IMG/VR virus record: IMGVR_UViG_2579778982_000031
Origin: a virus
Taxonomy: Duplodnaviria; Heunggongvirae; Uroviricota; Caudoviricetes
Length of the DNA: 54,443 nt
Direction: 5' to 3' (one strand)
A program made the position numbers and the translations under genes. The notes under the pieces are model-generated. The model saw only the letters and a list, made by a program, of their open reading frames with translations. It ran no database searches and was not told the DNA's origin. Below are positions 4,797 to 54,130 of the stretch, in pieces. The stretch's first letter is position 1; every line of letters starts with the position of its first letter.

Positions 4797-4813
4797 TTTT
4801 GTGGAGAAAGTTG

Positions 4814-30101: not shown

Positions 30102-30127
30102 TCCTGCTTTTGTCAGGGAGATCTACC

Positions 30128-31531: not shown

Positions 31532-31799
31532 GTTCCTTTTTTTTAGTATAATTATTAACATCGGCAGTATTTAATAATTCTTTAAAAATAAATTTTCAGG
31601 CTCATACCAATTATATCTTCAAGCATTATTATCAAGCATATTCGAGACCTCTGCAATTCGCTCACAGCGGATCTCGCCTAGCGAGCAGGTCTGCTCAGTG
31701 CCATAATTAGTCTCATCAGCAGACTATAGTTGTGCTCAATCGGAGACATGTGGCAAACATGAGGAACATTATGTCCGTCAAAGAGTTTTCGTAGCTTAG

Positions 31800-32015
31800 G
31801 CATTTCGATGCTGGCAACGGGTCAGTGTAACGCTTACTATATCGGTCCACTTTAGTCTTAAGGGTTCAATATGGCGTTGCACCTATTGTCCGCTGACCAA
31901 GAATCTTCGGGTGATTCAACTTCTGTTGGGTCATAAGAAACTGGAAAGCACATTCCGTTATCTGGGCATTGAAGTCGATGATGCGTTAGAGATCTCTGAA
32001 TCGATTGAAGTCTAA
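31800..32015 (+). pseudogene. Tyrosine-recombinase (lambda Int-like) C-terminal remnant
   Basis: Frame ending at TAA 32013-32015 encodes ...VIQLLLGHKKLESTFRYLGIEVDD..., matching the LLGHK-x6-RY catalytic-Tyr box of lambda-type integrases; in-frame stop at 31797 and no N-terminal domain. Confidence 0.35.
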
Positions 32016-32121
32016 GGTTGTCAGGGCTGCAACAGCAGCCCTGTGCCAGGAGCAGACGTTAACGACCAAGCATTGGCGGCAATTGAGCTCAGCGCAATTG
32101 CCGTTCAAGTGCAACTCCGTT

Positions 32122-36663: not shown

Positions 36664-37054
36664 AACAACTGGACAAGTATACAGAGGTTTACTAAAGTAT
36701 AGGGGAGTAGATTGATAAAAACTCACAGAGGATTGCTATTTAACAGTTAGCCCTGGAGAAGGGCAATCGCTCTTTTATAAACGAAGGTGTATTGAGCCTT
36801 CTACGTCGCTGACAAAGCGGAATGTTCTTTAAAACTACTGGATGTCACGCCTAATAGCGTGATCCTGCCGAAATGCAGGGTAGCTCTACCCTTGTGGAGC
36901 AAACAAACCAAAACAATCTGACTATCTTTTATAAAAGACCGCAATATGTTTTTCATATTGTGGTCTTTGGCGTATTCGACATTTGACGCAAATAAAACTC
37001 TCGCCATTCGTTGCAGGAGGGGGTTATTGCGTCATTAGTACAGGATATTAATAA

Positions 37055-37258
37055 ATGGCTAATTACAATTCATTAATTCGTCTCTCTGAAGTTCAAAGGC
37101 GAACTGGTTATAGCAAAGCATGGATTTATCGTCTTATTAGTCAGGGGAGGTTCCCTAAACAGGTAAAAATTGGAAGTCGGGCAATTGCTTTTGTTGAGTC
37201 TGAAATAGATGAATGGATTGAGAAGTGTATATTAGAATCTAGAGACGAGGTGGCCTGA
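37055..37258 (+). CDS. alpA: AlpA-family transcriptional regulator / excisionase-like
   Basis: 67 aa; LSEVQRRTGYSKAWIYRLISQGRFPKQVKIGSRAIAFVESEIDEWI is a typical AlpA/Vis HTH. Confidence 0.75.
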   Translation: MANYNSLIRLSEVQRRTGYSKAWIYRLISQGRFPKQVKIGSRAIAFVESEIDEWIEKCILESRDEVA

Positions 37259-37689
37259 TGGAAAAGAAAAACCGCCCATTACAGGCGGCTAATTCAGATA
37301 TTCGTGTATCTGATGTTACGCCCCTTACAAAATCCCTTCAAGCACCAAAGCGTACACCGAAAAAGCATCGTGCCAGAGTCTATATGCTGCGTACTGGTAT
37401 AGAGGGATGGACAGAAAATGACATTCTTCGCTACTGCCGTCTGTCTTCTGGTCGTAACTATGCAACAGAGTTAGAACGCCAGCTTGGAATCACTCTGGAG
37501 CGTATCGACGAAAAGAATCCTGATGGTATCGGAACACACCTTCGCTACCGTTTCTCCTGCCGTGGTGATGTTCTGAAAGTGATCACTCATATTAACCATC
37601 TTGCGAACATAAATGATCACAACGGACTTTCTCAGCAGGAAATTGCCGACATTCTGAAACTCTACCCGGACGCGTTTAACGCCGCCTAA
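37258..37689 (+). CDS. Hypothetical protein
   Basis: 143-aa ORF, ATGA-coupled to alpA. Confidence 0.4.
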   Translation: MEKKNRPLQAANSDIRVSDVTPLTKSLQAPKRTPKKHRARVYMLRTGIEGWTENDILRYCRLSSGRNYATELERQLGITLERIDEKNPDGIGTHLRYRFSCRGDVLKVITHINHLANINDHNGLSQQEIADILKLYPDAFNAA

Positions 37690-37701
37690 CGGAGACTGAA
37701 A

Positions 37702-38535
37702 ATGAACATCGAAAAAAGCAGATTAATTTCTGAGGCTGCCCCTCATCTGAACGCCTCTCTGGGCACAATTAACGGTAATGAATTTGCCGCAATTGTCCCG
37801 GTTATTCCTGGTCATATCGGTGGGCGTGAAACCAATATTGTTAGCGCAAAAGCGTTACACAAAGCGTTGGGCGTGGGAAAAGACTTCTCTACATGGATCA
37901 CTGATCGCATCTCTGAATATGACTTCACCATTGGGCACGATTACTCAGTCCATAAAACAATTTCCCCAAATTTGGGGAAAAGCCCGAATGGCGCGGCTTA
38001 CAGCAAGATTAAGCAGTCTGGCAGACCCGGCAAAGACTATCTGTTAAGTGTCGGAATGGCGAAAGAACTGGCAATGATCGAACGCAATGATCAGGGTCGC
38101 GCTATCCGTCGTTATTTCATCCAGTGCGAGGAAGAATTACAGCGTAGCGTGCCTGAAATCGCCGCCCGCTATCGTCGCCAGCTAAAAGCCCGTATTAGTG
38201 CCGCAAACAACTTTAAGCCAATGTGCGATGCGCTGAATATGGCCCGTGCCGAGCAGGGGAAAACGACGCAGCAACACCACTACACAAACGAGAGCAATAT
38301 GATTTCTCGTATCGTTCTTGGTGGGCTAACTGCTAAGCAGTGGGCGCGGATAAATGGCTATTCTGGCGAACCTCGCGACCATATGAACGCAGAACAGCTT
38401 GAGCACCTCTCATATCTCGAAAGCACCAATATCACGTTAATTGATATGGGCATGGAATATGAGCAGCGCAAAGGAGAACTCACCCGCCTGTCGCAACGCT
38501 GGCTCGCCAAGCGTCTGGAGGCGGTCCATGTTTAA
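37702..38535 (+). CDS. Phage antirepressor-like protein (AntA/KilAC-like)
   Basis: N-terminal region resembles AntA-type antirepressor domains (NGNEFAAIVPVIPGHIGG...VSAKALHKALGV); assignment tentative. Confidence 0.45.
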   Translation: MNIEKSRLISEAAPHLNASLGTINGNEFAAIVPVIPGHIGGRETNIVSAKALHKALGVGKDFSTWITDRISEYDFTIGHDYSVHKTISPNLGKSPNGAAYSKIKQSGRPGKDYLLSVGMAKELAMIERNDQGRAIRRYFIQCEEELQRSVPEIAARYRRQLKARISAANNFKPMCDALNMARAEQGKTTQQHHYTNESNMISRIVLGGLTAKQWARINGYSGEPRDHMNAEQLEHLSYLESTNITLIDMGMEYEQRKGELTRLSQRWLAKRLEAVHV

Positions 38536-38703
38536 GCCGACAGGAACACCACAACCCCAAAAACGCTACAAAGATGCCCACGGAGCACTCGTTACTGTCG
38601 AAAGCGTGTCTCACAACCGAGTGACGTTTTATCGCGACGGGTATCAATCGCCATGCGTACAACTGCTGGCGCGCTTCATGAAGGAGTTCGCGGAGGTTAA
38701 CAA

Positions 38704-39771
38704 ATGCTAACCGTCCAGAAGAAGATATTTTCACTGGCTGGTATGTCGCCAAAATCCAGCAATATGACAGCAAAGTCTGGCATTAATACAGCATATACAA
38801 GCAAAGTTTATCATTTTCTGGTGGTAGGAGCGGATGCCTTAACTATGTCAGAAATTACGGTCGATGGTGTTAGCGTTGAGAAGGTCGGCGGCTGCGCCAG
38901 AGAATTTCTGGTCGTAGATGGCTTTCTCTGCTCGCGTAGTGACTCCACAAAAACCTTCGTCCACACGCGCGACGTTAACGAAATGAGCGCGATGTATTGT
39001 GCATCTGGTGCTTCCAATAGTGAGTTTTCGGAGTCCATAAAAAAGAGCTTGCCGTTATGCGGCAACACGGTTTATGGTTATAAGGCACCTCATAAAACGG
39101 GTGCCGGGATTGGCGTCCTGAAAATTCTGAAGGCGACATATGACGCGCCGAGCGTCTTTTTTTATGTCGTAGGTCTGACTCACCCATTTTTTGGGCGTTG
39201 GTGTATAATCCAGCGCCTTTGTCAATCAATGGTGGCTCAGGCGGGGGCTTCTTCGGAAGCGCCGGTATCCTTCAGAGCCGGTTACGCCAACCCTGTCTGG
39301 GCTACCACCAGCGAAATTGGCGTTTCCGGTGGTAGCGTAACCTGCTATCTGAAGGAGGCTGCCACATGCTGGCTACTACCCCTACCCAAAAACCGCAATT
39401 TATCTGGATTATCGCCGCAGTTCGCCGCGATTGCCCGACAATTACCGCCAAAATTCATCATATTGCTGCCGAGTCTGAACGCGATGCTCGCCGTTCTCTG
39501 GTGCGCGATCACGTCTGCTTTTTTGCTGGTCGTATCCGCATGGAGGTGGCACATGATTAAAACCTACGATGTGCATATGGATCCCCTCGAACGCACAAGC
39601 CAGATCATCACACTGACAGAAGTGATTAACGACATTCTGGTGAGCAACTCTCCCTCACGAGACGAAAGACTGAAGGCGTTACTCGCGATATTGGATCTCG
39701 CCGTTCGTGACGTTCATTTCCTGCTGGAAGGTGGCGAAATGCCAGGAAAAACGGGGGCAACCAATGAATAA
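38704..39771 (+). CDS. Hypothetical protein; gene structure ambiguous
   Basis: 355-aa ORF whose middle looks non-protein-like; a 64-aa ORF (39366-39560, RBS AGGAGG) in another frame and a 72-aa in-frame C-terminal ORF from 39553 (RBS GGAGGT) may be the real genes. Confidence 0.3.
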
Positions 39772-39958
39772 CTCAATTAATGCCCCTCGACTTACGTCCG
39801 CACTTCAATTAATCGAGCAAGCAGCGGCTGTCCTGGTTGCTGTCAGTCTTTCGGCTGAAGAAATGGACGCTGCTGATGTCGTGGATGCGATTAAAGCGTG
39901 CTCATCTTTGGTTAACGATGCCCGTGCAGAGCTGGTAATTCTTGGGGGTGAAAAATGA
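39764..39958 (+). CDS. Hypothetical small protein
   Basis: 64-aa ORF from an internal ATG; part of a run of coupled small genes. Confidence 0.35.
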   Translation: MNNSINAPRLTSALQLIEQAAAVLVAVSLSAEEMDAADVVDAIKACSSLVNDARAELVILGGEK

Positions 39959-40218
39959 ATATCAACTTAATTTATCGTCATCCGTGTGAGCTGGAAATTG
40001 AATCATTGCTGGGGCGTGAAGAGCCATATCCAGACACATTCACTCCCGCAGATTGCGCGACTGAACGGCTTACCAGAGCGCGCACAGGTCTGGTTCATGT
40101 GATGAATGAGATTATTCCCTCGGTGGGAGGGGAACAGGCGACAGTAATCAATAGCTGGCTACAAAAAGTTACCTCCCTGATAGATATCAGTTTAATCGAT
40201 GTGGAGAGTGCGAAATGA
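39955..40218 (+). CDS. Hypothetical small protein
   Basis: 87-aa ORF, ATGA-coupled. Confidence 0.4.
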   Translation: MNINLIYRHPCELEIESLLGREEPYPDTFTPADCATERLTRARTGLVHVMNEIIPSVGGEQATVINSWLQKVTSLIDISLIDVESAK

Positions 40219-40436
40219 CCAACATCCAGCTCATTGAAGCGCAATGTCGCATCGAACAGGTTCAGACTGTTTTAGGGTTCTGGCTTGAAGGGGCCAGCCC
40301 CAGCAACAGAGACAAGTTAATGATTGGCGCGGTTATGTCACTGCTCAATGGCGTACCAGAAGCTATTCAGGAAGCAGACGAATTGTTGGGCAAATATGAG
40401 TTACAGAATCATTCAGGCGAGGCGAAACATGAATAA
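40215..40436 (+). CDS. Hypothetical small protein
   Basis: 73-aa ORF, ATGA-coupled. Confidence 0.4.
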   Translation: MTNIQLIEAQCRIEQVQTVLGFWLEGASPSNRDKLMIGAVMSLLNGVPEAIQEADELLGKYELQNHSGEAKHE

Positions 40437-41031
40437 TTTCTTAACCTTCCATGCAGAAGCAACGCCTGACGGCGTAAACATCATGTACCGCAGCAACGAT
40501 GGCATGACAGAACGCGTTGAGGCCGTTTCATATATTGATGCCGTAAATCGTCTGGATGCCGGGGATTATGACGATAAACCAGATGAAGGTATGTCAATAC
40601 ATCTTGCTATTGCCGATGGCGGCAACCAGGGATATTTCGATTACACATCACAGCATAACGTCATTATGTGGAGATGGCTGATCGCAACAGTATTCATGCT
40701 GGAAATGAGAGAGGAAAACGGCACTGTCAGCATCATTGATGATACTGGCAATCCTTCCGAAGTGGCTGTTTATTCCAACGGCATCGTCGCCATGCCGCTG
40801 TATCCAGTAGCAGAGCGCCTCGCTATGGCAAACAACATTGAGGGCGCGATGATAGAACGTTTTGGCATCGAGTCTGGCACAGAACGCGCCATCATTTTCT
40901 ACAGAGCCATGATGGATGTGGAACAAGGAGCACTGACTCCATTTGGTCGTGAAACGCTTGCTGAACTTCACAACAGCTTTATAGCTGAACTGAATGAAAA
41001 CGGCATGCCAGCGGAACCAGTGACGCACTGA
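40429..41031 (+). CDS. Hypothetical protein
   Basis: 200 aa from the ATG at 40429, overlapping the previous stop. Confidence 0.45.
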   Translation: MNNFLTFHAEATPDGVNIMYRSNDGMTERVEAVSYIDAVNRLDAGDYDDKPDEGMSIHLAIADGGNQGYFDYTSQHNVIMWRWLIATVFMLEMREENGTVSIIDDTGNPSEVAVYSNGIVAMPLYPVAERLAMANNIEGAMIERFGIESGTERAIIFYRAMMDVEQGALTPFGRETLAELHNSFIAELNENGMPAEPVTH

Positions 41032-41041
41032 GGATGGAGCC

Positions 41042-41383
41042 ATGATTACTAAAAATTTCCGACTGAATGCGCTGGCAAATAAGTATGCGTCGGCACTGTA
41101 TAACCACATTACCTCCACCAGCGGCGGGGACTATTTCATGGTTCATGCGGACGACAAGGCCGTACGTGTGGAAATCGTCAATGGAGTAAAAGGCGTTCGC
41201 AGCCTGATCGATAGCTACACACTGGCTGCCATGAAAGTGTTCTACCCGCAGTGGGAAACCGTGGGGATCGAGCTTCTTGATCGTTGCGTCACTAAGGACG
41301 GATTGACTGACGTCGGGCGTGAGATATGGCAAAGCATGGTTAATGACATGGGCGCAACTGTAGCGGGAGGTTCTCATGCGTGA
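41042..41383 (+). CDS. Hypothetical protein
   Basis: 113-aa ORF in the small-gene operon before the primase. Confidence 0.45.
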   Translation: MITKNFRLNALANKYASALYNHITSTSGGDYFMVHADDKAVRVEIVNGVKGVRSLIDSYTLAAMKVFYPQWETVGIELLDRCVTKDGLTDVGREIWQSMVNDMGATVAGGSHA

Positions 41384-41747
41384 AAATGCAGAAATGGCGC
41401 TTAGCTCCGCAATCGGAGAGCAGGTGGCAAAGATTGCTGGTGCTGTGTGGATTCATAACCTTCATTCTACTGGTGAAGAGAAAATGGCAATTCAGACGCC
41501 AGAGGGACGCACCATTACTACATCTCTGAAGCCGTCAGATGTTTGTGATCTGATTTGCGCATTCATGTACCCAGCAATGAGGACTGTCCACGGCGATAAG
41601 TGGAAACTTGCGACAACCGCTGAATTTGATATGTGGCTAAACAATGATGGCATGCTGACTGATTACGGAATAACCAAGTGGCAGATGCTGGTTAGCCATA
41701 TCGCAAACGCTATAGACCACGTGGGGTACGGTGATGCGAAACATTGA
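41376..41747 (+). CDS. Hypothetical protein
   Basis: 123-aa ORF overlapping the primase start. Confidence 0.45.
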   Translation: MRENAEMALSSAIGEQVAKIAGAVWIHNLHSTGEEKMAIQTPEGRTITTSLKPSDVCDLICAFMYPAMRTVHGDKWKLATTAEFDMWLNNDGMLTDYGITKWQMLVSHIANAIDHVGYGDAKH

Positions 41748-44490
41748 TCTTATCCGTCAGGTTATCAGTGCGTCTGAAAACAACTGGCCTCATGTGCTGG
41801 GCTGCCTGAACATAAATGTCCCTGACTCTCCGCGCCGTCATGCTCCCTGCCCTGCATGTGGGGGCAAAGATCGATTCCGGTTCGATGACAACGGGCGCGG
41901 TAGCTTCATCTGTAATCAGTGCGGCGCTGGTGATGGGCTGGATTTAATTAAACGCGTAAATAACTGCGACACAACAGAGGCGGCGCTTCTTGCCGCTGAT
42001 GTTCTGGGTATTGATTACCGGACAACGGAAACACCAGAAGCCACCAGCCAGAAACGGGAACAACTGGAAACCGAGCGCCAGCGACGCGAACAGGAGCGCC
42101 TGAAAAGGGCAGAGAAGGACGAACAACAAAGACGGGATACGTTTTCCCGTCAGTTTGATGACATGCGCAGAAAGGCTGTAAACGGCAAATCTGATTATCT
42201 GGTTGCGAAAGGGGTAGGTGATTTTACATTCCCCGTGTTGCCCGATGGATCTCTGTTGCTGGCGCTGGTGGATAAATCCGGCGCAGTCACAGCAGCACAG
42301 ACTATTACCTCACATGGTGAAAAAAGACTCCTGACAGGTTCAGCAAAGCGGGGGGCATATCACGCCATAAACGCACCAGAAACAACACAGAGCATCTTAA
42401 TCGCAGAAGGGCTGGCAACGGCATTATCTGCCCATTTAATTCGTCCAGAGGCGCTGACAGTGGCGGCGATTGATGCCGGGAACCTGTTATATGTCGCCCA
42501 GGTACTGCGGGATAAATATCCATCAGCACAAATCATCATTGCTGCGGATAACGACCACAGCGAAGGAAGACAAAACACGGGGAGAATAGCAGCAGAAAAA
42601 GCAGCTTTATCTGTTTCTGGATGGGTGGCATTACCCCCGACAGATCACAAAGCAGACTGGAATGATTACCACCAAAAACACGGCATTAAATGCGCCACAG
42701 AAGCGTTCAATAAGTCAATGTACCAACCACAGGGTAATGGCGTGAAACAGGAGCCACAGACCATTGAGGGAAGCGATTTTAAGGTTATGGATACCGACCC
42801 ACTGAAACCAAGAATAGAAAGCCGCGAGGATGGTATTTATTGGGTATCTCCGAGAGCTGACAGCCAGAGTGGAGAAATCATCAATAACGAAAGCTGGTTA
42901 TGTTCTCCGTTAAGCGTTATCGGTACTGGCAGAGACGATAAAGACCAGTATCTCATTCTTCGCTGGCTGTCGTTTGGTTCTGAAACGCCGACAACCGCTG
43001 CCATTCCACTGGCTGATATTGGTGAACGTGAAGGATGGCGCACACTTAAAGCTGGTGGGGTAAATGTCACGACCAAAAGCAGCCTCAGAGCAATACTGGC
43101 AGACTGGCTACAACGCAGTGGCTCTCGTGAATTGTGGCGTGTTGCTCATGCCACTGGCTGGCAATGCGGAGCGTACATCATGCCTGATGGGGAAATCATC
43201 GGAACACCTGAAAATCCTGTGCTGTTCAGCGGGAGAAGCTCAGCCGCAGCCGGATATACCGTCTCAGGGAGCGCGAAAAGCTGGCGTGATAACGTGGCGC
43301 GTCTGGCCTTTGGTAACTATTCAATGATGACCGGGATCGGCGCAGCACTGGCAGCGCCATTGATTGGGCTGGTGGGCGCTGACGGGTTCGGCATTCATTT
43401 CTATGAGCAGTCGAGCGCAGGTAAGACCACCACGGCAAACGTGGCGAGCAGCTTATACGGCAACCCTGATTTACTGCGGCTGACGTGGTACGGAACCGCG
43501 CTGGGGCTGGCAAATGAAGCCGCCGCCCACAATGACGGACTAATGCCGCTTGATGAAGTTGGTCAGGGCGCTGATCCTGTCAGTGTTTCACAGTCTGCCT
43601 ATGCGTTATTTAACGGTGTAGGGAAACTGCAAGGCGCTAAAGATGGTGGAAACCGGGATCTAAAACGCTGGCGTACAGTGGCAATCAGCACTGGAGAAAT
43701 GGATTTAGAAACATTTATCGCTACTTCCGGGCGAAAAACCAAAGCCGGGCAACTGGTGCGACTGCTGAATATTCCGTTGAGTAAAGCAGTACGCTTTCAC
43801 GATTACCAGAACGGAAAACAGCACGCAGACGCACTGAAAGACGCTTACCAGCATCACCACGGCGCAGCCGGGCGTGAGTGGATTAAATGGCTGGCAGACC
43901 ACCAGCAACAGGCAATTAAAACTGTTCGTGACTGCGAAAGCAGATGGAGAAGTCTGATCCCATCCGATTATGGTGAGCAGGTTCACCGTGTAGCCGCGCG
44001 ATTTGCCATTCTGGAGGCCGCATTGCTGTTAGGCGAGGTTGTAACAGGCTGGGATGCTCAGACATGCCGTGATGCGATACAGCACAGCTATAACGCATGG
44101 TTGCGCGAGTTCGGCACAGGTAACAAAGAACATCAGCAGATTATTGAACAAACGGAGGCATTTCTTAATGCCTATGGGCTTAGCCGTTTTGCACCATTTC
44201 CATACAGCCCGGCAGATTTGCCCATCAAAGATTTGGCCGGATACCGTCAGCGTGGAGAACATGACGAAAGCCCAATGATTTTCTACACATTCCCGGCCAC
44301 ATTTGAAAAGGAGATCGCATGTGGTTTCAACGCAAAACAGTTTGCTGAAGTGTTGAAAAAAGCCGGGATGCTAACCCCACCAAACAGCGGTCGTGGATAC
44401 CAAAGAAAATCACCACGTATTCAGGGACGACAAATAAACGTTTATGTACTCAATTACCAGCCAGGAGATTATAACTCATCTGAAGAATGA
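41734..44490 (+). CDS. Primase-helicase (P4 alpha-like; zinc ribbon + TOPRIM + P-loop NTPase)
   Basis: Zinc ribbon CPACGG...CNQCG; TOPRIM-like ILIAEGLATA and AADNDH; Walker A GIHFYEQSSAGKTTTAN; followed directly by an iteron array. Confidence 0.8.
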   Translation: MRNIDLIRQVISASENNWPHVLGCLNINVPDSPRRHAPCPACGGKDRFRFDDNGRGSFICNQCGAGDGLDLIKRVNNCDTTEAALLAADVLGIDYRTTETPEATSQKREQLETERQRREQERLKRAEKDEQQRRDTFSRQFDDMRRKAVNGKSDYLVAKGVGDFTFPVLPDGSLLLALVDKSGAVTAAQTITSHGEKRLLTGSAKRGAYHAINAPETTQSILIAEGLATALSAHLIRPEALTVAAIDAGNLLYVAQVLRDKYPSAQIIIAADNDHSEGRQNTGRIAAEKAALSVSGWVALPPTDHKADWNDYHQKHGIKCATEAFNKSMYQPQGNGVKQEPQTIEGSDFKVMDTDPLKPRIESREDGIYWVSPRADSQSGEIINNESWLCSPLSVIGTGRDDKDQYLILRWLSFGSETPTTAAIPLADIGEREGWRTLKAGGVNVTTKSSLRAILADWLQRSGSRELWRVAHATGWQCGAYIMPDGEIIGTPENPVLFSGRSSAAAGYTVSGSAKSWRDNVARLAFGNYSMMTGIGAALAAPLIGLVGADGFGIHFYEQSSAGKTTTANVASSLYGNPDLLRLTWYGTALGLANEAAAHNDGLMPLDEVGQGADPVSVSQSAYALFNGVGKLQGAKDGGNRDLKRWRTVAISTGEMDLETFIATSGRKTKAGQLVRLLNIPLSKAVRFHDYQNGKQHADALKDAYQHHHGAAGREWIKWLADHQQQAIKTVRDCESRWRSLIPSDYGEQVHRVAARFAILEAALLLGEVVTGWDAQTCRDAIQHSYNAWLREFGTGNKEHQQIIEQTEAFLNAYGLSRFAPFPYSPADLPIKDLAGYRQRGEHDESPMIFYTFPATFEKEIACGFNAKQFAEVLKKAGMLTPPNSGRGYQRKSPRIQGRQINVYVLNYQPGDYNSSEE

Positions 44491-44513
44491 GCTTCTTCAT
44501 GTGCGTAGAAAAG

Positions 44514-44640
44514 GTGTTGGTTCAGTTGGTTCAGTTGGTTCAGTTGGTTCAATTTGTAAAGAGTATTGTTTTATAAGGATTTTATTCTTTTTATTGAACC
44601 AACACTGAACCAACAACACGGTATTTTGAACCAACACAAT
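44514..44640. repeat. Iteron array, candidate replication origin of the satellite-like element
   Basis: Four tandem GTTGGTTCA, an AT-rich spacer, then three inverted TGAACCAAC copies; immediately downstream of the primase-helicase. Confidence 0.6.
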
Positions 44641-44955
44641 GTGACTGAATTGATGCGCACAACACCTGGCTGGCATCAGAGAGTGTTTTACGAGACTTTC
44701 GTAAAATCCTGTGTACAAGGGCGTGACGTTTTTGAAAGTGAGCACTACGAAATTTTCGTAGTTCAAAAAACAGCCTCTGAGAAGTTGTTATGCCTGTTCA
44801 GCAAACCATCCGCATAGCTGATCGCGAATCAAATTACCAATGGAGCCAGAAGCAAGGGCAGAACTGAAAAGTGCCTGCCGTGAAGAGTAATGCGACACCA
44901 TAAATATAGTTTTTAGAGTCCATAAAAAACCAGTCAAAACCTGACACACAGAACG

Positions 44956-44988
44956 ATGCCACCAGCTACTGAGCGGTGGCATTTTTTT
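44956..44988 (+). terminator. Rho-independent terminator
   Basis: 8-bp stem ATGCCACC/GGTGGCAT with ~10-nt loop followed by TTTTTTT. Confidence 0.5.
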
Positions 44989-45083
44989 GTGCTATTTGTT
45001 TCATATTTTGCAATTACGATGATGAATATTGCGATTTATGAAACTATAATAACTGTTGTTTTATACAGTTCTAAGGGGGCGTT

Positions 45084-45245
45084 ATGGCTATTTCAGTAAA
45101 GCCGGTATTGATAAGTGAGAAGCAAATGGAAGCGATAAAGAAAATTCAGGAAGAGCAGCGTAAAAAATCAGGAATTGGAGTAGCGCCAACTCTGCATGAA
45201 ATTGCTCGAGGGTTAATAGATAAGGCGCTGGCAGGCTGTATGTGA
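45084..45245 (+). CDS. Small putative DNA-binding protein
   Basis: 53-aa ORF not in the supplied track; AAGGGGG RBS 5 nt before the ATG; lysine-rich helical composition. Speculative. Confidence 0.3.
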   Translation: MAISVKPVLISEKQMEAIKKIQEEQRKKSGIGVAPTLHEIARGLIDKALAGCM

Positions 45246-45261
45246 AAATGGATGGCATCGC

Positions 45262-45723
45262 ATGGAACTAAAATTTATTGATAACCCTGTGCGATTACAG
45301 GCCTTTCTTAACGATCCTGGCAATACCGAAAATATTGTTGAGCCGGGGCACACGTACTACATCAAGCCTGATGCGGTATATCTCGGCATCTACGAAGGAT
45401 TGGTGCTGGCTGGCGTTCATGAAGTGCGTAACTTCTGGCATAGCGTTGTTGAATGCCATGCGGTGTATGACCCCGGATTCCGTGGTGAATATGCACTGCA
45501 AGGGCATCGACTATTCTGCAAATGGCTTCTCGAAAACTCACCATTCCTTAACAGCATCACTATGGTTCCTGACACCACGAAATACGGACGGGCAATTATC
45601 CGTTTGCTTGGCGCTACCCGTGTTGGTCACCTTGATGATGCTTATATCAGATGTGGTAAACCCGTCGGCGTAACGCTTTATCAGTTAACTCGGCAACAAT
45701 ATAAGGAATTCAGCGAATGTTAA
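45262..45723 (+). CDS. Hypothetical protein (first gene of cargo cassette)
   Basis: 153 aa, start overlapped by the next gene; no motif recognised. Confidence 0.45.
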   Translation: MELKFIDNPVRLQAFLNDPGNTENIVEPGHTYYIKPDAVYLGIYEGLVLAGVHEVRNFWHSVVECHAVYDPGFRGEYALQGHRLFCKWLLENSPFLNSITMVPDTTKYGRAIIRLLGATRVGHLDDAYIRCGKPVGVTLYQLTRQQYKEFSEC

Positions 45724-46394
45724 TTACCCATATAGCTCATAAACATCTCAATCGTGCCGTATACGAAAAAGGCGGTGATGGTGGTGCCTCTAAAGCTCAG
45801 GCGAAGGCCCAGCAGCAGGCAATTGATTTGCAGCGCGAGCAGTGGAATACGGTGATGAATAATCTCAAGCCGTATGCAGAAGTCGGATTGCCTGCTTTAC
45901 AACAACTACAAGGACTGATGACTCTGGAAGGGCAGAATAAAGCCGCGAATGATTTCTTTGGTTCTGGTTTATATAAAACACAGGCAGATCAGGCCCGTTA
46001 TCAGAACCTTGTCTCAGCAGAAGCTACCGGGGGGCTTGGCTCAACAGCTACCAGTAACCAGTTATCTTCCATTGCGCCCATGCTTTATAACAATTGGCTT
46101 AGTGGGCAAATGCAAAATTATGGAAACCTGCTAAATGTCGGGATGAATGCGGCATCAGGGCAGGCAACGGCAGGGCAAAACTACGCCAATAATACCGGAC
46201 AACTCTTGCAGGGGCTTGGCGCTATTCGTGCAGGTCAGGCGCAGCAGCCATCCAGTCTTGCGCGTGGTATTGGTGGGGCAGCATCAGGCGCTTTAGCGGG
46301 TGCGCAACTTGGTTCCGTTGTTCCTGGAATAGGTACTGCGGCAGGCGCTATTGGTGGTGGGCTTATTGGTCTTGTTGGGGGGCTTGGATTCTAA
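45717..46394 (+). CDS. Hypothetical Gly/Ala/Gln-rich protein with hydrophobic glycine-zipper C-terminus
   Basis: 225 aa; C-terminal GIGTAAGAIGGGLIGLVGGLGF; coupled to flanking genes. Confidence 0.45.
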   Translation: MLITHIAHKHLNRAVYEKGGDGGASKAQAKAQQQAIDLQREQWNTVMNNLKPYAEVGLPALQQLQGLMTLEGQNKAANDFFGSGLYKTQADQARYQNLVSAEATGGLGSTATSNQLSSIAPMLYNNWLSGQMQNYGNLLNVGMNAASGQATAGQNYANNTGQLLQGLGAIRAGQAQQPSSLARGIGGAASGALAGAQLGSVVPGIGTAAGAIGGGLIGLVGGLGF

Positions 46395-47713
46395 TGGCGA
46401 CATGGCAACTTGGCGGGCTGCCTAGCATGGCACCGCAAAATGATAATGCTCCTCGTTCTTCCGTTCCTCAGCCTGTGCAGTATCAGCAGCAGCCAAACGT
46501 AGGTTTAATGGCGCTACAGGGGCTAAGAGGCGTTGCTGAGATTAATCAGCAGGCGCAAATTTCCCAGCAGCTAAAAGAATATCAGGCACAGTTGGGTAGT
46601 GCGGTAGCTAATAATGATCGTGTTGGCGTGCAGAAGTTAATGGCCCAGTATCCCCAGTTTATGGCTGATTCTCAAAAACAGATGGGATTCATTGATGCTG
46701 AGCAAAATCGGCAGACCGCTGACGCTGCCATGAATCTGCGTCTTGCGTCACAAACTGGAGATCCACTGACCATGCAGAAGGCCATTCAGCAGGCAAATCC
46801 AGTATTACAGCGATTTGGTCTTCCTGCTGAAGAGGTTTATCAGTCTTGGCAGAATGACCCACAGGAATTCAACAGAATCACTGACCTCATCCACCTCCAT
46901 GCTGATCCAAATAGTTACTTTAGTGTTCAAGAGAAGCAGCAAGGGCAGAGTATTGCACAGCAGAACGCAGATACATCTGCATATAATGCTCAGGTTAATG
47001 CGGAACAGGGTAATCGGCGTCTCGATATGGAGCAGTTCAAAGTCCTATCCGATAACCAGCTACGCACGAGAGAAATGGTTCTGAAAGCACGACTTGGACG
47101 TGCTCAAAATGACATCGAGAGAGACAAGCTCAATGCTGAACTGAGCAAGGTACAGCAGGCGAAAGTGGAGAAGATGAACGATAAAATTAATACTGTTGCA
47201 GGTAACATCGACTCCTTGAACTCTGCGCTTGAAGTGGGTCATGAACTGGCGGGAATTGTAGGGAAACATCCTTCGGCCGTTACCCGTTCGCAGAACTATA
47301 ACCCCCTGACGCTGGGGTTTGGATTCCTTCCTGATGTAGCAGAAGACACACGAAGCCTACGCGCCAAAGCTGATGAATACAACCTAAAGGTTATTCTGCC
47401 TAGCCTCAAAGGGACTTTTGGCTCTAACCCAACCGAAGGGGAAAGGGCTGCCCTTATGCAATCTCAAAATGGCATTAAGTCAGCAACCAGCAATGAGGCA
47501 TTTTTGCGAGAGTTGAATAAAGCGCAGGACGTAATTATTCGAATGCAGAAACGACAGATTGCCGGGCTCGGTATTCCTGTAACCAAATCTAAGGACGAAG
47601 AAACTGATACTAAAATGCTGTTGCAGGATCCTTCTCTGGTTAAGGATTATGTGACCGCACATGGCTATCTGCCGGAAAGTTACTATCAGGCAAAACTTAA
47701 GGGATGGCAATGA
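46394..47713 (+). CDS. Hypothetical Gln-rich coiled-coil protein
   Basis: 439 aa, strongly helical and Gln/Ala-rich; ATG overlaps the previous stop. Confidence 0.45.
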   Translation: MATWQLGGLPSMAPQNDNAPRSSVPQPVQYQQQPNVGLMALQGLRGVAEINQQAQISQQLKEYQAQLGSAVANNDRVGVQKLMAQYPQFMADSQKQMGFIDAEQNRQTADAAMNLRLASQTGDPLTMQKAIQQANPVLQRFGLPAEEVYQSWQNDPQEFNRITDLIHLHADPNSYFSVQEKQQGQSIAQQNADTSAYNAQVNAEQGNRRLDMEQFKVLSDNQLRTREMVLKARLGRAQNDIERDKLNAELSKVQQAKVEKMNDKINTVAGNIDSLNSALEVGHELAGIVGKHPSAVTRSQNYNPLTLGFGFLPDVAEDTRSLRAKADEYNLKVILPSLKGTFGSNPTEGERAALMQSQNGIKSATSNEAFLRELNKAQDVIIRMQKRQIAGLGIPVTKSKDEETDTKMLLQDPSLVKDYVTAHGYLPESYYQAKLKGWQ

Positions 47714-50430
47714 TGGCACAACTGACAGAAAAACAGAAAGCCTATTCCCGTCATCTCGATGAAAAATATGGTTTCCCATCAGGGACGATGGAAACATTAG
47801 TTGGCAATGAATCTAGTGGTAACGGAAGTGCCGAGTCACCGAAAGGAGCTAGAGGATTTGCTCAACTGATGCCCTCAGTAATGAGTGATGCTGGTTATCG
47901 TGGAACAGATCCGCGCTCACTGCCATTTGAAAAGCAAATGGATATCGCAGCAAACCATCTCAATAAAGGAATGAAGCGATTTGGTGATATAGGTATGGCA
48001 TTGGCTGGGTATAATTCTGGCTATGCTCGTATTAATGCCGTAAGAAACGGTAAATCTACACTGCCAGATGAAACGGCTAATTACGTAAGTAAATTTGCAG
48101 ATGCCGGAATAATCCCTGATGACAGTGAAATCTTGCAGTTTGCACAAACCAGTCAACATCGCAATCTTCAGCAGCCTGACTACTCAGAGCTTGATAAAGA
48201 AATCTCTCAGGTGGGAGATATTTCTGCATGGGAAGCAAAACGTCAGCAATTTAAGAACATAGAAGCAGGACTACCAACAGCCAGTTCATGGGAGCAGAAA
48301 AGAGCTCATTTTCTCGCCGATGAAAATGCCGGGGAACCGCAGCAGCAAGTAGCCAAGTCTAACCTTAATCCTGAGATGGAATATCTTTCGCCAGGACTGA
48401 AAGCTGCGCCAGAGCAGATGGCCAGAGGGATTGCTAATATACCGTTTGATGTAATGGACGCAGGCGTGGGGGTAGTCAATGCGGCGCAATCAGCCGGAGC
48501 ATGGGCAGCTCAGAAGCTTGGTGTGGGTGATGGTACATACACGCCCATATCACCTGTCTTTCGCCCAGTAGACCAACCTACAGATCCATACGCGCAGGCT
48601 GGTGAGCAGCTAGCACCTTACCTTATTACAGGATTAGGTGCAGGAAAGGCAGCTACCGCAGCTTCTTCAGTTGCCAACGCTCCACGTGCTGAACGTGCGG
48701 CCACAAAGGTGGCTAGTATGTTGGCAGAAAACCTGCCAGGTACATTGGTGAACGCCCAAAAGAACGGGCAGATCAGCCCAGAAGACCTAGCAAAAGAGAC
48801 AGGTATTGGCCTAGCAGGATCGCTAGGAGCACGCGCTTTAATAAAGAGCGGACAGACAGCCAGTGACGTAATGCGAGATGTATTGCGGAGTAATACAAAT
48901 CAATCAAGCTATGTGTTAGGGGCAGCAAATACTCTGGAAACCGCCAATGATGTATCGAAAGCAGCGCGTTCTGCCGTAGGCCGAGAGCATATCGCATCGC
49001 AGGCATCAAACGTCAGAGATGATGTCGCTAAGGCGGCGAAAATCACTGGTATTAATATCAACACCCTGACGCCTGGAATGCGCTCAGGTAGTCGTGGAAT
49101 TGCCCAAGCAGAAGGTGTTCTGGCATCAACTCCTGGGAATGTTCAGGATGCTCACCTTACGGCCTTCAATGAAATATCCTCAAAGTTGAATAAGCAGTTG
49201 TCTGATTTCGGTGCTGAGTCTGGAAGCGCATCAGAAAAAAGCGCAGCAATTAAAGAGCGCATTATCGCGAGCCTCAGTGATATGAAAACAGCAGAGAATA
49301 TGGCATGGGCAGAACTGCGAAGCACGATGCCACGCGAAAGGATGAAAATGAGTAATGGGATGGCTGTCGTCCAAGCAGAAAAAGCAGCCAATGTTCCACT
49401 CAGCCCGGAGATGAAACAGTTTCAGGCTGCCAATAACCAAGGTGGCGGCATAACCTTCGACGGGATGAAGGCATGGCGTGCTAAGTTTGCTGATGCTGAA
49501 CAAGCAAACACCCGGGCAGGTAAGGCCAATGCCGCCCGGGTTGCCGGAGAAATGCGCAGAGCTATCACTGATGACATGCGCATCATGGCTGAAAAAGGAA
49601 ACTTCCTCACAGAATGGCAGAAAGCTAACGATCTCTCTAAAAGTTACATTATCGCCAAACAAAATGCCGAATCTGTTTTTGGTCGAGATCTCGCATCAGA
49701 CGCTATGGTAAGAAAAGGTGCCGATACGCTTAAGGCATCCGCAAACACTGGAACGGGAGCTTTTCACCGTCTTATCTCCGCGCTGCCGGAAGCAGAACGC
49801 CAACCAGCAATAGCATCTATTCTTCAGCATGCTGTGGCGCAGGGAGAGAAGGGAGGAATCGGTGAAGAGTCTGGTATCCAGTATTTTGCCAAGCTCATGA
49901 CCCAGCAGAATGTAAACGCCATCAGTCGTCATGCGCCAGATCTCGGTAGAATGATGAAAGAGTTCGGTGTACTCGCTAAAGCCAGCACCAGACCGCAGCG
50001 ATACGTAGAGCGCACGGGAAGAACAACTGAGGCTCTCAAAACGCTCGATTCAGGCCTTCCAAAGATCGTCGGCGTGATTATGAACGGAGTTCAACAGTCA
50101 GGTGCGATCGCTGGAGGCTTTGGCGGTGGTGTAATTGGTTCGATTAGTGGTTTGGTTGCTGGTGGCGCGCTGAGAAATACTGTGGCTAAGATTGGGGCGA
50201 CAAGAAGTGGTCGATATGCGATAGAGAAAGCCGTTCAGGAAGCTACAAAAGCAGTGCGCGCAGGGGCATCACCAGCAGCGATCGCCGCAGCAGAGAAACG
50301 ATTTTCGGCCAATAAAATTGCCATGAAAGCAATTCGTGATGCCGTTGGGGCTGAAGAATTCGTGAAACTGACAAGGGCCGGGATTGTAGCTACCCTCAGT
50401 GGCATGAAAGATGTTAGCGAATGGGAATAG
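47704..50430 (+). CDS. Large protein with N-terminal soluble lytic transglycosylase (SLT) domain
   Basis: SLT motifs ESSGNGSAESPKGARGFAQLMP and AGYNSGYARIN in the first ~130 aa; the remaining ~780 aa are Ala-rich helical with a Gly-rich hydrophobic patch near the C-terminus. Confidence 0.6.
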   Translation: MAMMAQLTEKQKAYSRHLDEKYGFPSGTMETLVGNESSGNGSAESPKGARGFAQLMPSVMSDAGYRGTDPRSLPFEKQMDIAANHLNKGMKRFGDIGMALAGYNSGYARINAVRNGKSTLPDETANYVSKFADAGIIPDDSEILQFAQTSQHRNLQQPDYSELDKEISQVGDISAWEAKRQQFKNIEAGLPTASSWEQKRAHFLADENAGEPQQQVAKSNLNPEMEYLSPGLKAAPEQMARGIANIPFDVMDAGVGVVNAAQSAGAWAAQKLGVGDGTYTPISPVFRPVDQPTDPYAQAGEQLAPYLITGLGAGKAATAASSVANAPRAERAATKVASMLAENLPGTLVNAQKNGQISPEDLAKETGIGLAGSLGARALIKSGQTASDVMRDVLRSNTNQSSYVLGAANTLETANDVSKAARSAVGREHIASQASNVRDDVAKAAKITGININTLTPGMRSGSRGIAQAEGVLASTPGNVQDAHLTAFNEISSKLNKQLSDFGAESGSASEKSAAIKERIIASLSDMKTAENMAWAELRSTMPRERMKMSNGMAVVQAEKAANVPLSPEMKQFQAANNQGGGITFDGMKAWRAKFADAEQANTRAGKANAARVAGEMRRAITDDMRIMAEKGNFLTEWQKANDLSKSYIIAKQNAESVFGRDLASDAMVRKGADTLKASANTGTGAFHRLISALPEAERQPAIASILQHAVAQGEKGGIGEESGIQYFAKLMTQQNVNAISRHAPDLGRMMKEFGVLAKASTRPQRYVERTGRTTEALKTLDSGLPKIVGVIMNGVQQSGAIAGGFGGGVIGSISGLVAGGALRNTVAKIGATRSGRYAIEKAVQEATKAVRAGASPAAIAAAEKRFSANKIAMKAIRDAVGAEEFVKLTRAGIVATLSGMKDVSEWE

Positions 50431-50580: not shown

Positions 50581-51279
50581 ATGATTAAAAATCTTCTTTT
50601 AATATTATCCCTGTCATTATTGGCTGGATGCGTACAAAAACCGTTAGTAACGGTCAATGCTTTATCTTCCGGGCAATCTGTCGGTAAGAAGTTCTTGATC
50701 ATCCCCGCAAGCCAAGAACTTTGGAACACCAAACAGATTGAATACACTCAAATAGCTACGGTAGTAGCCGCCAGTTTATCAAGCCAAGGATATACACAAG
50801 TTAAAGATGAAAAATTGGCTGACCAGGTAATTCTCTTGAACTTTTTGAGAAGCGGGGCCATTTCAAATACTCGTAATGTAACCATCCCAATATACGGGCA
50901 AACTGGTGTGAGCTCAGCAACAACGTACGGAAACTCGAACACCACGTTCAATAGTTATGGTGGTGGCTACGGTACAGCTAATACCACTGGAACGGCAACA
51001 ACAGTTTATACGCCTACTTATGGAATTACTGGCGCGTATAACACAACTGTGACGGACACGTTCTACGGCGCAGGGGTGATACTCCAGTCGTTTGATGCCA
51101 AGGCCTATCTCAATAATAGGCAGATTAATATGTTATGGAAAGTTGGTAGCTCAGTCGTCTCGCAACAGTCTGATGGAATTGCTGATTACAAGGGGTTGGC
51201 GAGAATAGCCGCTAGCTATGCCGGGAAAAATACAGAAGGTGATATAACTTTTAATGTTGACCCTAAAGCACCAAATTAA
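50581..51279 (+). CDS. Lipoprotein, Thr/Gly/Tyr-rich
   Basis: Signal peptide with lipobox LLAGC; low GC; central Thr/Gly/Tyr-rich repeats. Confidence 0.6.
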   Translation: MIKNLLLILSLSLLAGCVQKPLVTVNALSSGQSVGKKFLIIPASQELWNTKQIEYTQIATVVAASLSSQGYTQVKDEKLADQVILLNFLRSGAISNTRNVTIPIYGQTGVSSATTYGNSNTTFNSYGGGYGTANTTGTATTVYTPTYGITGAYNTTVTDTFYGAGVILQSFDAKAYLNNRQINMLWKVGSSVVSQQSDGIADYKGLARIAASYAGKNTEGDITFNVDPKAPN

Positions 51280-52138
51280 CTAATAAGCCCGGTACGCCGG
51301 GCATTTTGCCCCCTATTATTCATGAATCGCTTTTTCTAGAAGGTATGCGACAAACGTTAAGTGACATTGCCTACACATTCGGGGCGGGATTTCAAATCCG
51401 CTCCCAGTTGATGGGGCCGTTACAGTACGCGCATATCCGCTTTATGTGAAACAGGAAGATTTTTCTGATATCACTGCCACAGCAAAACACCAATTTCGAG
51501 ACAAGTACGCGCGCGAGGGGTATCAGTTGCAAAAAATTTTGCAACTACGTCCGACCAATACACACACGATGGCGGGGGATACCATAAAACTGTTCTCTAC
51601 ATGAGACAGAGTGGTGGTGATGTGTTGATTATCGGCCTATATGCGCACAGGACGCGCTATGACAATGTTTTATGCGGGTACACCAATCACATGTATCTGG
51701 TGTGATAAATCGCGTTACATGACCTCTCATGTTGTGCTGGTGGTTATCACGACGTTCTGAATCTGGCTTTTGTCTGATATTTTGCGACAAGTACGCGCGC
51801 GTAACATCGAAATTATCGGATGGCGTATGTTGCTGGCAAGATAAAGTCGGCGTAATACAAAGGCGTTACTTGATAGCAGCAAGATTACAACAATGGTTGT
51901 TGAATTTGAGCGATGTAAGGAATTGATTTAGGGAGGCGCTGATGGCTAAAAAGTTCCACTACCAGCGGATGAATGCGCCAGCGATGGCCGTTTGGTAGTA
52001 AAAGAGGAGCCATTCCTCAATCAGTTGAATACATTATGCCAACTAAATGGGTGGGGGCACTGTGTGGGTATTCAGCGGTGACGGTATTTTTTAAGCCAAG
52101 GACTATCCGTAGCAGGGGGACTCATTTTGAAATATTTA

Positions 52139-52576
52139 TCATATGTAACTTATTATTTTAGATAAAGATTTCCAGTTAAAGAAAAAAGTTATCATTGATA
52201 TAATCAAATATGCCCCTGCGAGTAGCAGGGCATAATAATCCAGAGGCAGATTGCTGACAACAGGGGCAAACATCGAGATCATTGCTAATAGGCAGGCTGT
52301 GATCAGCGTAGTTCCTGTATCAAAAAGCCCCTCAATAATGCCTTTTAGTACTCCGTTACTTTTTAGAGCGCCTACAATTCCCTTTGAACTATCAAAGCTA
52401 CTTAGCATGGTGACTGATGCCAAAACAAAACCAAAGAGAACTCCAGAAATAGTTGAAAGAGCACCAGCAGCCGAAATGACAGCATTGTGATCTAGGTCGT
52501 GTAAAAAATGGGCACCAGCAATAGCCATAGCTAGAGCAAACAATGACTTGGCAGCAAACAATTTCCGAGAACTCAT
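52139..52576 (-). CDS. Small four-TM membrane protein (RexB-like architecture)
   Basis: 145 aa with four hydrophobic helices; 12 bp downstream of the 361-aa gene on the same strand. Confidence 0.5.
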   Translation of the reverse strand: MSSRKLFAAKSLFALAMAIAGAHFLHDLDHNAVISAAGALSTISGVLFGFVLASVTMLSSFDSSKGIVGALKSNGVLKGIIEGLFDTGTTLITACLLAMISMFAPVVSNLPLDYYALLLAGAYLIISMITFFFNWKSLSKIISYI

Positions 52577-52588
52577 AATGTATTCCTG

Positions 52589-53674
52589 TTACGTTTGACT
52601 AACCAAATAGTACTGGGTTAGATACCTAAGGTTGTCATTCTTTGCTTGTAGCATAGCATTTTTAACGTCAGTATCGGTCGGGTACCCATCTGCTTGGATA
52701 GGCACCATCTTCTTTACCGTAAGAACTTCGTCTACAAGACTTTTCTTCTTTTTATCGCCCTGAGCAACAACATTTGCTTTCTCAAAAGTTAAACGACCAT
52801 CACCACCAGGGAACTTTTCTAGCATCTCCTTAAGGCTTTTTTTAACGTCATCCTCAAGCCATCCCTTTGCTTTTCTTTTTAATGGAGCATGTCCGCGTAA
52901 CGAAATAGTCAGGTGGCTTGAACTGGTGCCTCTGATCATCTCAATCATCTGATTCGCGAACATTCCATCGAGTTGATACTGTGCGGCATTGAAGTTTCTT
53001 GGGATGGCCACAGAAATCTCGCAGCTTCTTAGATTGGATCCAGTTTCGAGTAGTTCTTTGATGCTTTCTTCTTTCCAAATGGCTTCAAAAGAAACAGGGA
53101 CTCCGCGATCACTGGAGTTGAAAAGAAGGAAGGCTAAGTCACTATGGCGTGGACCTAAATGATTTAAAGACAATACTAGAATGTCTGTCTGAGGATAATA
53201 AATAAAGTATGTACGTTCTGAAAGAGTCTTTGCCCCGGCTAGAGGGATTTTCTCTTCCACCCACTCTTTATCTGTAATATATGCCAGTGTTGCGCTTTTT
53301 CTTCTTCGAGACATGAATCCGAAGTAGGAGCCATCCTCGGGTGAGATGTCTAGAAAATGAATTTTAAGTTCTCTTTCACCAAAGTCTGCATAGTGGGTCA
53401 TCTTGAAGTCTTTAGAACACCGATCATAGAGATTTTTAAAGGCCTCTGCGGTTAACCCCTTGTTACTAGTGCGAATATTCTCAGAGCTTGTGTAAAAGCC
53501 CACCCTTACAGATTTCAAACTTTGATCTTTTGGTGCCACAGTCATTTGAGCTCCATTGTACTCTGCGATAGTTTTTGCACACCTTGAAATCAAAATCTCC
53601 ATGTCAGTCACGAGAAAATAACTATGGATGAAACCCATCAAAGGCATTGAATACAGGTGGCTTTTGAGAATCAT
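52589..53674 (-). CDS. Hypothetical cytoplasmic protein (RexA-like position)
   Basis: 361 aa, AT-rich codon usage, no TM segment, no motif recognised; first gene of a two-gene reverse-strand operon. Confidence 0.5.
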   Translation of the reverse strand: MILKSHLYSMPLMGFIHSYFLVTDMEILISRCAKTIAEYNGAQMTVAPKDQSLKSVRVGFYTSSENIRTSNKGLTAEAFKNLYDRCSKDFKMTHYADFGERELKIHFLDISPEDGSYFGFMSRRRKSATLAYITDKEWVEEKIPLAGAKTLSERTYFIYYPQTDILVLSLNHLGPRHSDLAFLLFNSSDRGVPVSFEAIWKEESIKELLETGSNLRSCEISVAIPRNFNAAQYQLDGMFANQMIEMIRGTSSSHLTISLRGHAPLKRKAKGWLEDDVKKSLKEMLEKFPGGDGRLTFEKANVVAQGDKKKKSLVDEVLTVKKMVPIQADGYPTDTDVKNAMLQAKNDNLRYLTQYYLVSQT

Positions 53675-54019
53675 CCTAACCTGGTGACGGTGGTTCGCAT
53701 ATCCTGATGGATGATCAGTGATTAATCAATGCGCCAAGCAGATGTGTCTATGTGTTTGTTAATCATTGCATGACAGTAGATCGACATGGGAGATCACGTT
53801 ATATAGTTGAATTGTTAGGATATCCATGCACCGATCAACTGACTAGGCTGATGTGCTTTTTAGCAGGTGCCATATAGTAGTTAGGCGGTTCTGTGAAATG
53901 ATTACTGTTCCAGCATAACTGCGGCATAAAGCGGTGCTATATAAGCTATTTGCTGGCGGATTTAGTCTTCACCGTTCATATATGTAGTGACTATTTGACA
54001 GAGTGTTAGTTCACGGACA

Positions 54020-54130
54020 CTTTTTGTTGGTTCAAAATGAGTTGATGTTGGTTCAATATTTTAGAAAAAACACAATAAAAACAACGCTCTTTACAAATTG
54101 AACCAACTGAACCAACTGAACCAACACCTT
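54020..54130. repeat. Inverted second copy of the iteron/ori module
   Basis: Reverse complement of the 44514-44640 module with one fewer repeat per arm; shared flanks GCAAAAAGGTGTTGG and CAATTTGTAAAGAG. Confidence 0.55.

Follow-up and report, generated by a model that had tools for sequence, protein, structure and literature searches.

The rexAB genes of phage lambda lie in its immunity region, where they are co-transcribed with cI, and encode a soluble protein of 279 amino acids (aa), RexA, followed after 15 nucleotides (nt) by a membrane protein of 144 aa, RexB. Exclusion of T4 rII is an example of the phenotype of this system. Several pairs of the same type that are missed by the Pfam RexA and RexB models or by BLAST are now known to act as abortive-infection defences in which both genes are needed (10.1101/2024.07.02.601686; PMC12894663; PMC6426596). 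Here, we examine with respect to these systems a pair of genes, hereafter A and B, present in the IMG/VR virus record IMGVR_UViG_2579778982_000031 (Duplodnaviria; Heunggongvirae; Uroviricota; Caudoviricetes), a stretch of 54,443 nt that we call the window. The pair is close to its lambda counterpart in gene order, spacing and sizes (a soluble protein of 318 aa, 12 nt, a membrane protein of 145 aa), and we consider it very probable that the two pairs are homologous.

Three groups of described systems are especially relevant for the comparison. Sucellos (SclA/SclB), found in a cassette of the V. cholerae chromosomal integron, resembles RexAB in its predicted structure but escapes the Pfam Rex domains; both of its genes are required, it acts by abortive infection, and its homologues are reported to lie mostly in prophages, often of Salmonella (10.1101/2024.07.02.601686). 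Judging by the primer list, the cassette may be VCA0367-0368 of V. cholerae N16961. RexABpp corresponds to PP_5643/PP_5644 of the P. putida prophage P1, and here also both genes are required for phage defence (PMC12894663). Finally, gp30/gp31 of Sbash and gp44/gp43 of CarolAnn are Rex-like systems of actinobacteriophages (PMC6426596, PMC6426606). The existence of validated divergent pairs such as Sucellos (10.1101/2024.07.02.601686) and RexABpp (PMC12894663) means that the word "undescribed", used for the present pair in a first-pass annotation made from the DNA letters and their translations, was too strong.

Gene A (52589..53545, minus strand; RefSeq WP_001528727.1) encodes a predicted cytoplasmic RexA-like protein, and gene B (52139..52576, minus strand; RefSeq WP_000098670.1) a predicted four-helix RexB-like protein of the inner membrane. 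The spacer between them (52577..52588, minus strand) contains the AGGA ribosome-binding site of gene B at 52584-52587, and such a tight arrangement is compatible with co-transcription and coupled translation. The first-pass annotation had correctly delimited this two-gene module as regards the two open reading frames (ORFs), their strand, the 12-nt gap and the length of B, but had taken A to be 361 aa long, which is the length of its longest ORF (52589..53674, minus strand). We think that the start of gene A is most likely Met44 (ATG at 53545), giving a product of 318 and not 361 aa, because a Shine-Dalgarno sequence read directly from the DNA, GGAG (53551-53554, minus strand), stands 5 nt upstream of this codon, all the aligned homologues (31/31) begin at the Met44 position, the PHROG profile spans aa 46-360 of the 361-aa ORF, and RefSeq annotates a protein of 318 aa. 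The ATG at 53674, read in the same way, has no properly spaced Shine-Dalgarno sequence. The 43 additional codons of the maximal ORF (53546..53674, minus strand), which neither the homologues nor the PHROG profile reach, are thus probably an untranslated leader.

The observation that the pair runs opposite to the rest of the element in an AT-rich block was also accurate. The pair sits in a thrW-associated island, where it follows the genes for P22-like ejection proteins, and the island genes around it all lie on the plus strand; the GC (guanine plus cytosine) content is 0.417 for gene A and 0.400 for gene B, against 0.481 for the remaining island and 0.50 for the whole window. We nevertheless take A and B to be true genes rather than chance ORFs in AT-rich DNA, because intact copies of both occur in no fewer than eight further genera of enterobacteria (Klebsiella, Pantoea, Cronobacter, Citrobacter, Rahnella, Yersinia, Salmonella and Xenorhabdus). 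The lowest identity among these intact homologues is 43% for A and 36% for B, and B is 36% identical where A is 44-46% identical, so that B diverges in step with A.

The relationship of protein A to RexA emerges only from comparisons at the level of families and folds. Direct scans of A and B with the hidden Markov models (HMMs) of Pfam, NCBIfam and PADLOC gave nothing but noise (TubZ-like_C with E 0.026 and DUF2649 with E 0.08), and phmmer found no match to either protein among PDB sequences. The earlier statement that neither protein resembles anything recognisable therefore stands for these libraries, but not beyond them: both proteins fall in PHROGs families of unknown function (phrog_7651 for A), and Pfam DUF6731 (PF20505) is annotated on homologues that are 43-50% identical to A. 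Protein A itself has no match to PF20505 at E <= 1 and does not reach the Pfam gathering score. A profile built from a 32-sequence alignment of A (alignment A1) retrieved 136 cluster representatives among 1.84 billion proteins; when 80 full-length representatives were aligned with the window protein (alignment A3), DUF6731 was matched by 70 of the 81 sequences. On these sequence relationships, we assign protein A to the DUF6731 superfamily as a divergent member. Pfam gives DUF6731 no function, and a literature search on DUF6731, PF20505, WP_001528727.1 and WP_000098670.1 found no paper in the library that was searched.

The AlphaFold model of A has a mean predicted local distance difference test score (pLDDT) of 80.7 and a predicted template modelling score (pTM) of 0.75. 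In a Foldseek search of this model against solved structures, lambda RexA (8TWQ) came first, as a clear outlier among the matches (E 1.1e-6, prob 1.0), and RdgC second; RdgC is, with CHL4, IML3 and CENP-N, one of the known structural relatives of RexA (PMC11077077). Protein A is thus predicted to be a soluble two-domain protein with a RexA/RdgC-like fold. A profile-profile comparison with hhalign between alignment A3 and a 25-sequence alignment of the RexA family (alignment A4) is consistent with this model (prob 79.9, P 1.4e-5): 254 collinear columns join residues 14-314 of A to residues 1-270 of RexA and cover both RexA domains, with a score of 43.9, whereas control alignments obtained by reversing or block-shuffling RexA scored at most 21.3. 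An invariant GPxxSDL motif (A 131-137) is aligned with FGPTTSDL of RexA, and a conserved lysine-rich patch, GDKKKK (A 263-268), aligns beside the stretch that holds R219 and K221 of RexA, two residues needed for DNA binding (PMC11077077). Protein A is basic, with an isoelectric point (pI) of 8.9.

Protein B has four hydrophobic segments (about 6-24, 40-58, 89-107 and 115-133), and its AlphaFold2 (AF2) model consists of four long helices (pLDDT 68.7), in agreement with the four transmembrane (TM) helices initially proposed; the distribution of Lys and Arg (positive-inside) would put the two ends of the protein, as well as its central loop, on the cytoplasmic side. For comparison at the family level, we assembled two sets of proteins, each encoded by the next ORF directly downstream: a RexB set (16 distinct proteins of 138-155 aa), taken behind the RexA homologues of 19 viral contigs, and a B-like set (13 distinct proteins of 132-170 aa), taken behind the DUF6731-type genes of related loci. 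hhalign joined the two sets with probabilities of 95.6-95.9% (P 1.2e-8 to 2.8e-9). To guard against the spurious scores that membrane proteins may give, we ran controls with reversed, with fully shuffled and with within-block shuffled alignments; the best of them scored 20.4, against 54.2 for the real alignment. The joint alignment is collinear and contains two motifs common to both families. The first, in TM2, is (A/S)G(T)(L/M)(L/I)(G/A)(F/I)..(A), as in SGTILGFLIASLT of the RexB family and AGTLLGFVITALS of the partner family, the conserved TM2 residues of B including G45, F48 and G49; the second, [KR]x[KR]xxG[HY][FY], is located in the loop that follows TM2 (KFKKYGYF in the RexB family, KLKKHGYY and LRKTGHF in the partner family). 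This loop motif matches in position the cytoplasmic loop in the middle of Sbash gp31, in which R70A and D73A abolish defence (PMC6426596). Protein B is therefore, as far as profile comparison can tell, a small four-helix membrane protein homologous to RexB, and the likeness to RexA and RexB that the first-pass annotation had guessed from size and topology has become remote homology for both partners, with the fold as an additional argument in the case of A.

The association of the two genes is conserved. An A-like gene is followed by a membrane partner of 132-151 aa in all of the 17 related loci examined (17/17), including those whose A is only 17-30% identical to that of the window, and the A-B spacing in the related pairs measured ranges from -38 to +37 nt. 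In most of these partners a hydropathy scan finds four hydrophobic segments; in four partners it finds three, and one of these four is truncated where its contig ends. The carriers are diverse. In phage cdtI the pair (orf54/orf53) is inserted, in opposite orientation, after Q and before the DNA methylase/lysis genes, as it is in an E. coli prophage; in one related locus it is beside the lysis cassette, and in Rahnella it is at the end of a prophage, adjoining the tail-fibre genes. These slots are classical moron or exclusion positions, as are those occupied in the window and in the Vibrio prophage described next. A 14.6-kb Vinavirales (PM2-like) prophage of Vibrio cyclitrophicus (PQ189356.1) carries a DUF6731-type gene and a four-TM partner at 1389-2896, directly after the integrase, so that the cassette crosses virus realms. 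A cI-like repressor was never adjacent to the pair in the loci seen. A scan of genome contigs with the A1 profile found only two loci. The cdtI slot has a counterpart in the window itself: in the window's own prophage, a patch of low GC that separates the Q antiterminator (4799-5191) from the methylase/holin genes contains, in opposite orientation, an ORF of 339 aa without Pfam or PADLOC match (5206-6225, minus strand), which may be another moron or defence candidate.

The segment that carries the pair in the window belongs to an island whose integrase, primase and ejection-protein genes lie at 35449-50430 (plus strand). Its gene content includes a tyrosine integrase, proteins of the AntA and Ash families, a Zn-ribbon/TOPRIM/DUF927 primase, a DUF2824 protein, and P22-like ejection proteins, namely gp7, a protein with an injectosome-translocase domain and a 908-aa protein with an SLT domain. 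Such a combination is unusual in a satellite-like element, and genes for capsid, portal or terminase are missing from it. Since it has neither capsid nor terminase genes, the island may be a satellite or a decayed chimera, and the idea that the pair is satellite cargo is plausible. The 2.2-kb segment with the pair is present at >= 80% coverage in 41 of 5,426 complete E. coli genomes (about 0.8%). Its listed E. coli matches, among them that of the asymptomatic-bacteriuria strain ABU 83972, are 99.8-99.9% identical, and a megablast search against deposited phage genomes found no near-identical DNA match to it.

In Rex-type systems a soluble protein of about 280-370 aa directly precedes a co-oriented membrane protein of about 140-180 aa, and the pair fits this layout. 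When set against lambda RexAB, however, it shows an identity of only about 15%, and A, which exceeds RexA by 39 aa in length, is a member of the DUF6731 sequence family. The location also differs, as the pair and its relatives occupy late-region or terminal moron slots or, here, a non-lambdoid island. With Sucellos, compared by its published description, the DUF6731-type family shares a RexAB-like structure without a Pfam Rex match, a two-gene organisation and prophage-borne enterobacterial homologues, the carrier being an integron in one case and a thrW island in the other. The family has Salmonella, Vibrio and prophage members, and because it has Vibrio and Salmonella members we lean slightly towards the view that Sucellos belongs to the DUF6731 branch. 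No V. cholerae member is found among the family representatives, whose names are metagenomic or refer to Yersinia, Aeromonas and Pseudoalteromonas. RexBpp is longer than B (mutations are reported up to residue 181), and the RexABpp operon, unlike the present pair, is co-transcribed with the prophage repressor (PMC12894663). The Sbash and CarolAnn systems have in common with our pair a soluble RexA-like protein and a four-TM partner, with an essential central cytoplasmic loop and a proposed depolarisation, but they come from phages of Gram-positive hosts and their A proteins are larger (about 370 aa).

Taken together, these comparisons lead us to favour, with reasonable but by no means full confidence, the reading that the pair is a divergent homologue of lambda RexA/RexB acting as an exclusion module, and that this module travels as an accessory (moron) cassette, with an orientation of its own, on the thrW-integrated integrase/primase island. 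By analogy with the studied systems, protein A would be a dimeric sensor that binds DNA non-specifically and is activated by infection with a foreign phage. Once active, it would act on the cytoplasmic TM2-TM3 loop of B, which, as an oligomer, would form an open channel or pore for cations; the membrane would then depolarise, ATP would fall, and the infection would abort at the cost of the infected cell, thereby protecting the clonal population and the island. The trigger, the contact between A and B, the channel activity and the abortive-infection phenotype are all transposed here from described relatives. A bolder proposal, which we regard as doubtful, is that DUF6731 proteins and their obligate four-TM partners make up a large branch of the Rex superfamily that has so far escaped annotation and is separate from lambda RexAB and perhaps also from Sucellos and RexABpp, that moves as a self-contained cassette among temperate elements as different as lambdoid Caudoviricetes, Vinavirales prophages and integrase/primase islands, and that would serve here as an island-protecting exclusion device, perhaps sparing a helper, rather than as a host-protecting one.

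Several points weigh against the exclusion-module reading and should be acknowledged. Neither protein matches its presumed counterpart at E <= 1, whether A against Pfam RexA (PF15969) and PADLOC RexA or B against Pfam RexB and PADLOC RexB, whereas lambda RexA and RexB, used as positive controls, match the PADLOC models at 9e-110 and 8.6e-61. The narrow A1 profile, which represents a single subfamily, is not significant by itself against RexA, nor are hhalign comparisons of this profile or of single sequences with lambda RexA/RexB, so that the RexA link depends on the broad DUF6731 alignment, just as the RexB link became significant with the wider family alignments. The AF2 model of B is of modest confidence and has no significant match in the viral structure library (best E 0.026); a 165-aa Sbash protein, which may be gp31, ranked second for the structure of B with a non-significant E of 0.05. 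A scan with the sigma-70 consensus found no convincing promoter upstream of gene A. In contrast to lambda rexAB, the pair is not beside a cI-type repressor, but a location in the immunity region is also absent in Sbash (PMC6426596) and thus seems typical of Rex systems rather than strictly defining. Finally, the mechanism of RexAB itself is still debated, and a defence function for this E. coli pair is argued from its relatives.

One could imagine that the pair is mainly a developmental modulator of its carrier, with A tuning the induction or maintenance of the island or prophage instead of defending the host. Lambda RexA does bind DNA, and it tilts the CI/Cro switch to the lytic side, an effect that RexB antagonises (bioRxiv 10.1101/2021.04.19.439022; PMC11077077), and the basic character of A, the alignment of its GDKKKK patch beside the R219/K221 stretch, and the repeated or palindromic motifs upstream of A and of the neighbouring perC regulator gene could all be read in this way. 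We think that this hypothesis is unlikely. The carriers are unrelated and their regulatory circuits differ (lambdoid late regions, a prophage end, a Vinavirales prophage, an island), which a self-contained function fits better than a circuit-specific regulator; the lack of an adjacent cI-like repressor in the loci seen points in the same direction, RexApp has no effect on the repressor promoter of its prophage (PMC12894663), and a strictly conserved membrane partner is hard to explain by regulation alone. This partner could instead suggest an addiction or lysis-type module, B being a holin-like membrane toxin restrained by A that would stabilise the mobile element. It is true that B is a small multi-helix membrane protein, that the pair is carried on mobile elements and that RexBpp suppresses the growth of P. 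putida when the A:B ratio is disturbed (PMC12894663). However, in the Rex-type systems tested A activates B and both are needed for defence (10.1101/2024.07.02.601686; PMC12894663), the loci in which the pair is next to a lysis cassette already have their own holin, endolysin and spanin, and the Pfam, NCBIfam, PADLOC and PHROGs scans gave no match to holin or toxin-antitoxin families, all of which makes such a role very unlikely in our opinion.

The same scans bear on the comparison with Kiwa that the first-pass annotation had proposed alongside Rex. Kiwa consists of a four-TM protein and a soluble partner of about 310 aa. This make-up is similar to that of our pair, and the likeness to Rex would be superficial if the pair were Kiwa-like (KwaA/KwaB) or some other unrelated two-gene membrane defence. 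We rejected the Kiwa assignment, as there is no match to the PADLOC Kiwa models or to Pfam DUF4868, no Kiwa chain appears in the top structural matches of A, among which RexA is the clear outlier, and the order soluble-then-membrane is that of rexAB and not of kwaAB; given, in addition, the profile homology of both partners to RexA/RexB, we attach next to no credence to this family of explanations. It is, on the other hand, conceivable that the genes are decaying passengers without current function in this strain, as the island is eroding elsewhere (it has lost an internal part in PK8276, and some of its genes are pseudogenes in ABU 83972) and no promoter was detected. Such decay appears highly improbable to us when both ORFs are intact, the segment is nearly identical in the listed genomes among the 41 carriers, and many residues of both proteins are invariant across genera. 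We thus retain the exclusion module as the preferred reading.

The immediate surroundings of the pair contain some additional elements. Repeated and palindromic TTAATCA(A/T)TGC motifs (53716..53769, no strand; repeat families D2, I8 and I9) stand 170-225 nt upstream of the start of gene A and may be a candidate operator or promoter region. Two weak terminator-like hairpins (51955..52018, minus strand) stand 120-185 nt downstream of gene B; the number of hairpins found is not above shuffle expectation, so that they are suggestive only. The pair is flanked by a lipoprotein gene on one side and by perC on the other. The former (50581-51279, plus strand), directly after the ejection-protein genes, encodes a predicted lipoprotein of 232 aa with a signal peptide and the lipobox LLAGC; it shows weak similarity only, to TraT and DUF4136 (E about 0.06-0.09), and may be a surface or entry exclusion factor. 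On the other side, five copies of TGAACCAAC (54025-54126) are found just upstream of the perC-family gene (54162 onward), three of them direct and spaced by 9 nt (54093-54125) and two inverted (54025-54057); these repeats may be iterons or operators.

The region 31025-34875 (minus strand), flanked by the upstream prophage with its tail-fibre/invertase end and by the integrase of the island, encodes a protein of 917 aa with an end-to-end match to the PADLOC defence model Ppl (E 2e-157), named TrlF-family AAA-like ATPase in RefSeq; its gene is followed by a 178-aa ORF without family match. The same slot is occupied in PK8276 by a DUF262 protein and the reverse transcriptase of retron Ec67, and because of this difference in content the prophage-island junction looks like a variable defence hotspot. 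The upstream prophage, which is myovirus-like, contains an invertible tail-fibre segment (28506-30682) where a Hin/Gin-type serine invertase (30092-30682) adjoins oppositely oriented genes for tail-fibre tips and tail-fibre assembly.

The finding of a RexAB-like pair in this island is not conceptually new, since Vibrio, Pseudomonas and actinobacteriophages have each already provided validated RexAB-type systems of the divergent kind. Its interest is rather for the two families concerned. DUF6731, an orphan Pfam family, and its unnamed membrane partner gain a functional hypothesis, as they may be annotated as RexA-like and RexB-like, respectively, and both become linked to the oldest known abortive-infection system. 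The TM2-TM3 loop motif of B, conserved throughout the family, would offer a concrete target for studying the gating of a RexB-like channel by a RexA-like sensor. More generally, the Rex models of Pfam and PADLOC v2, as well as NCBIfam, miss this branch, and because it is present in E. coli and in many Enterobacterales, current defence inventories under-count Rex-type systems.

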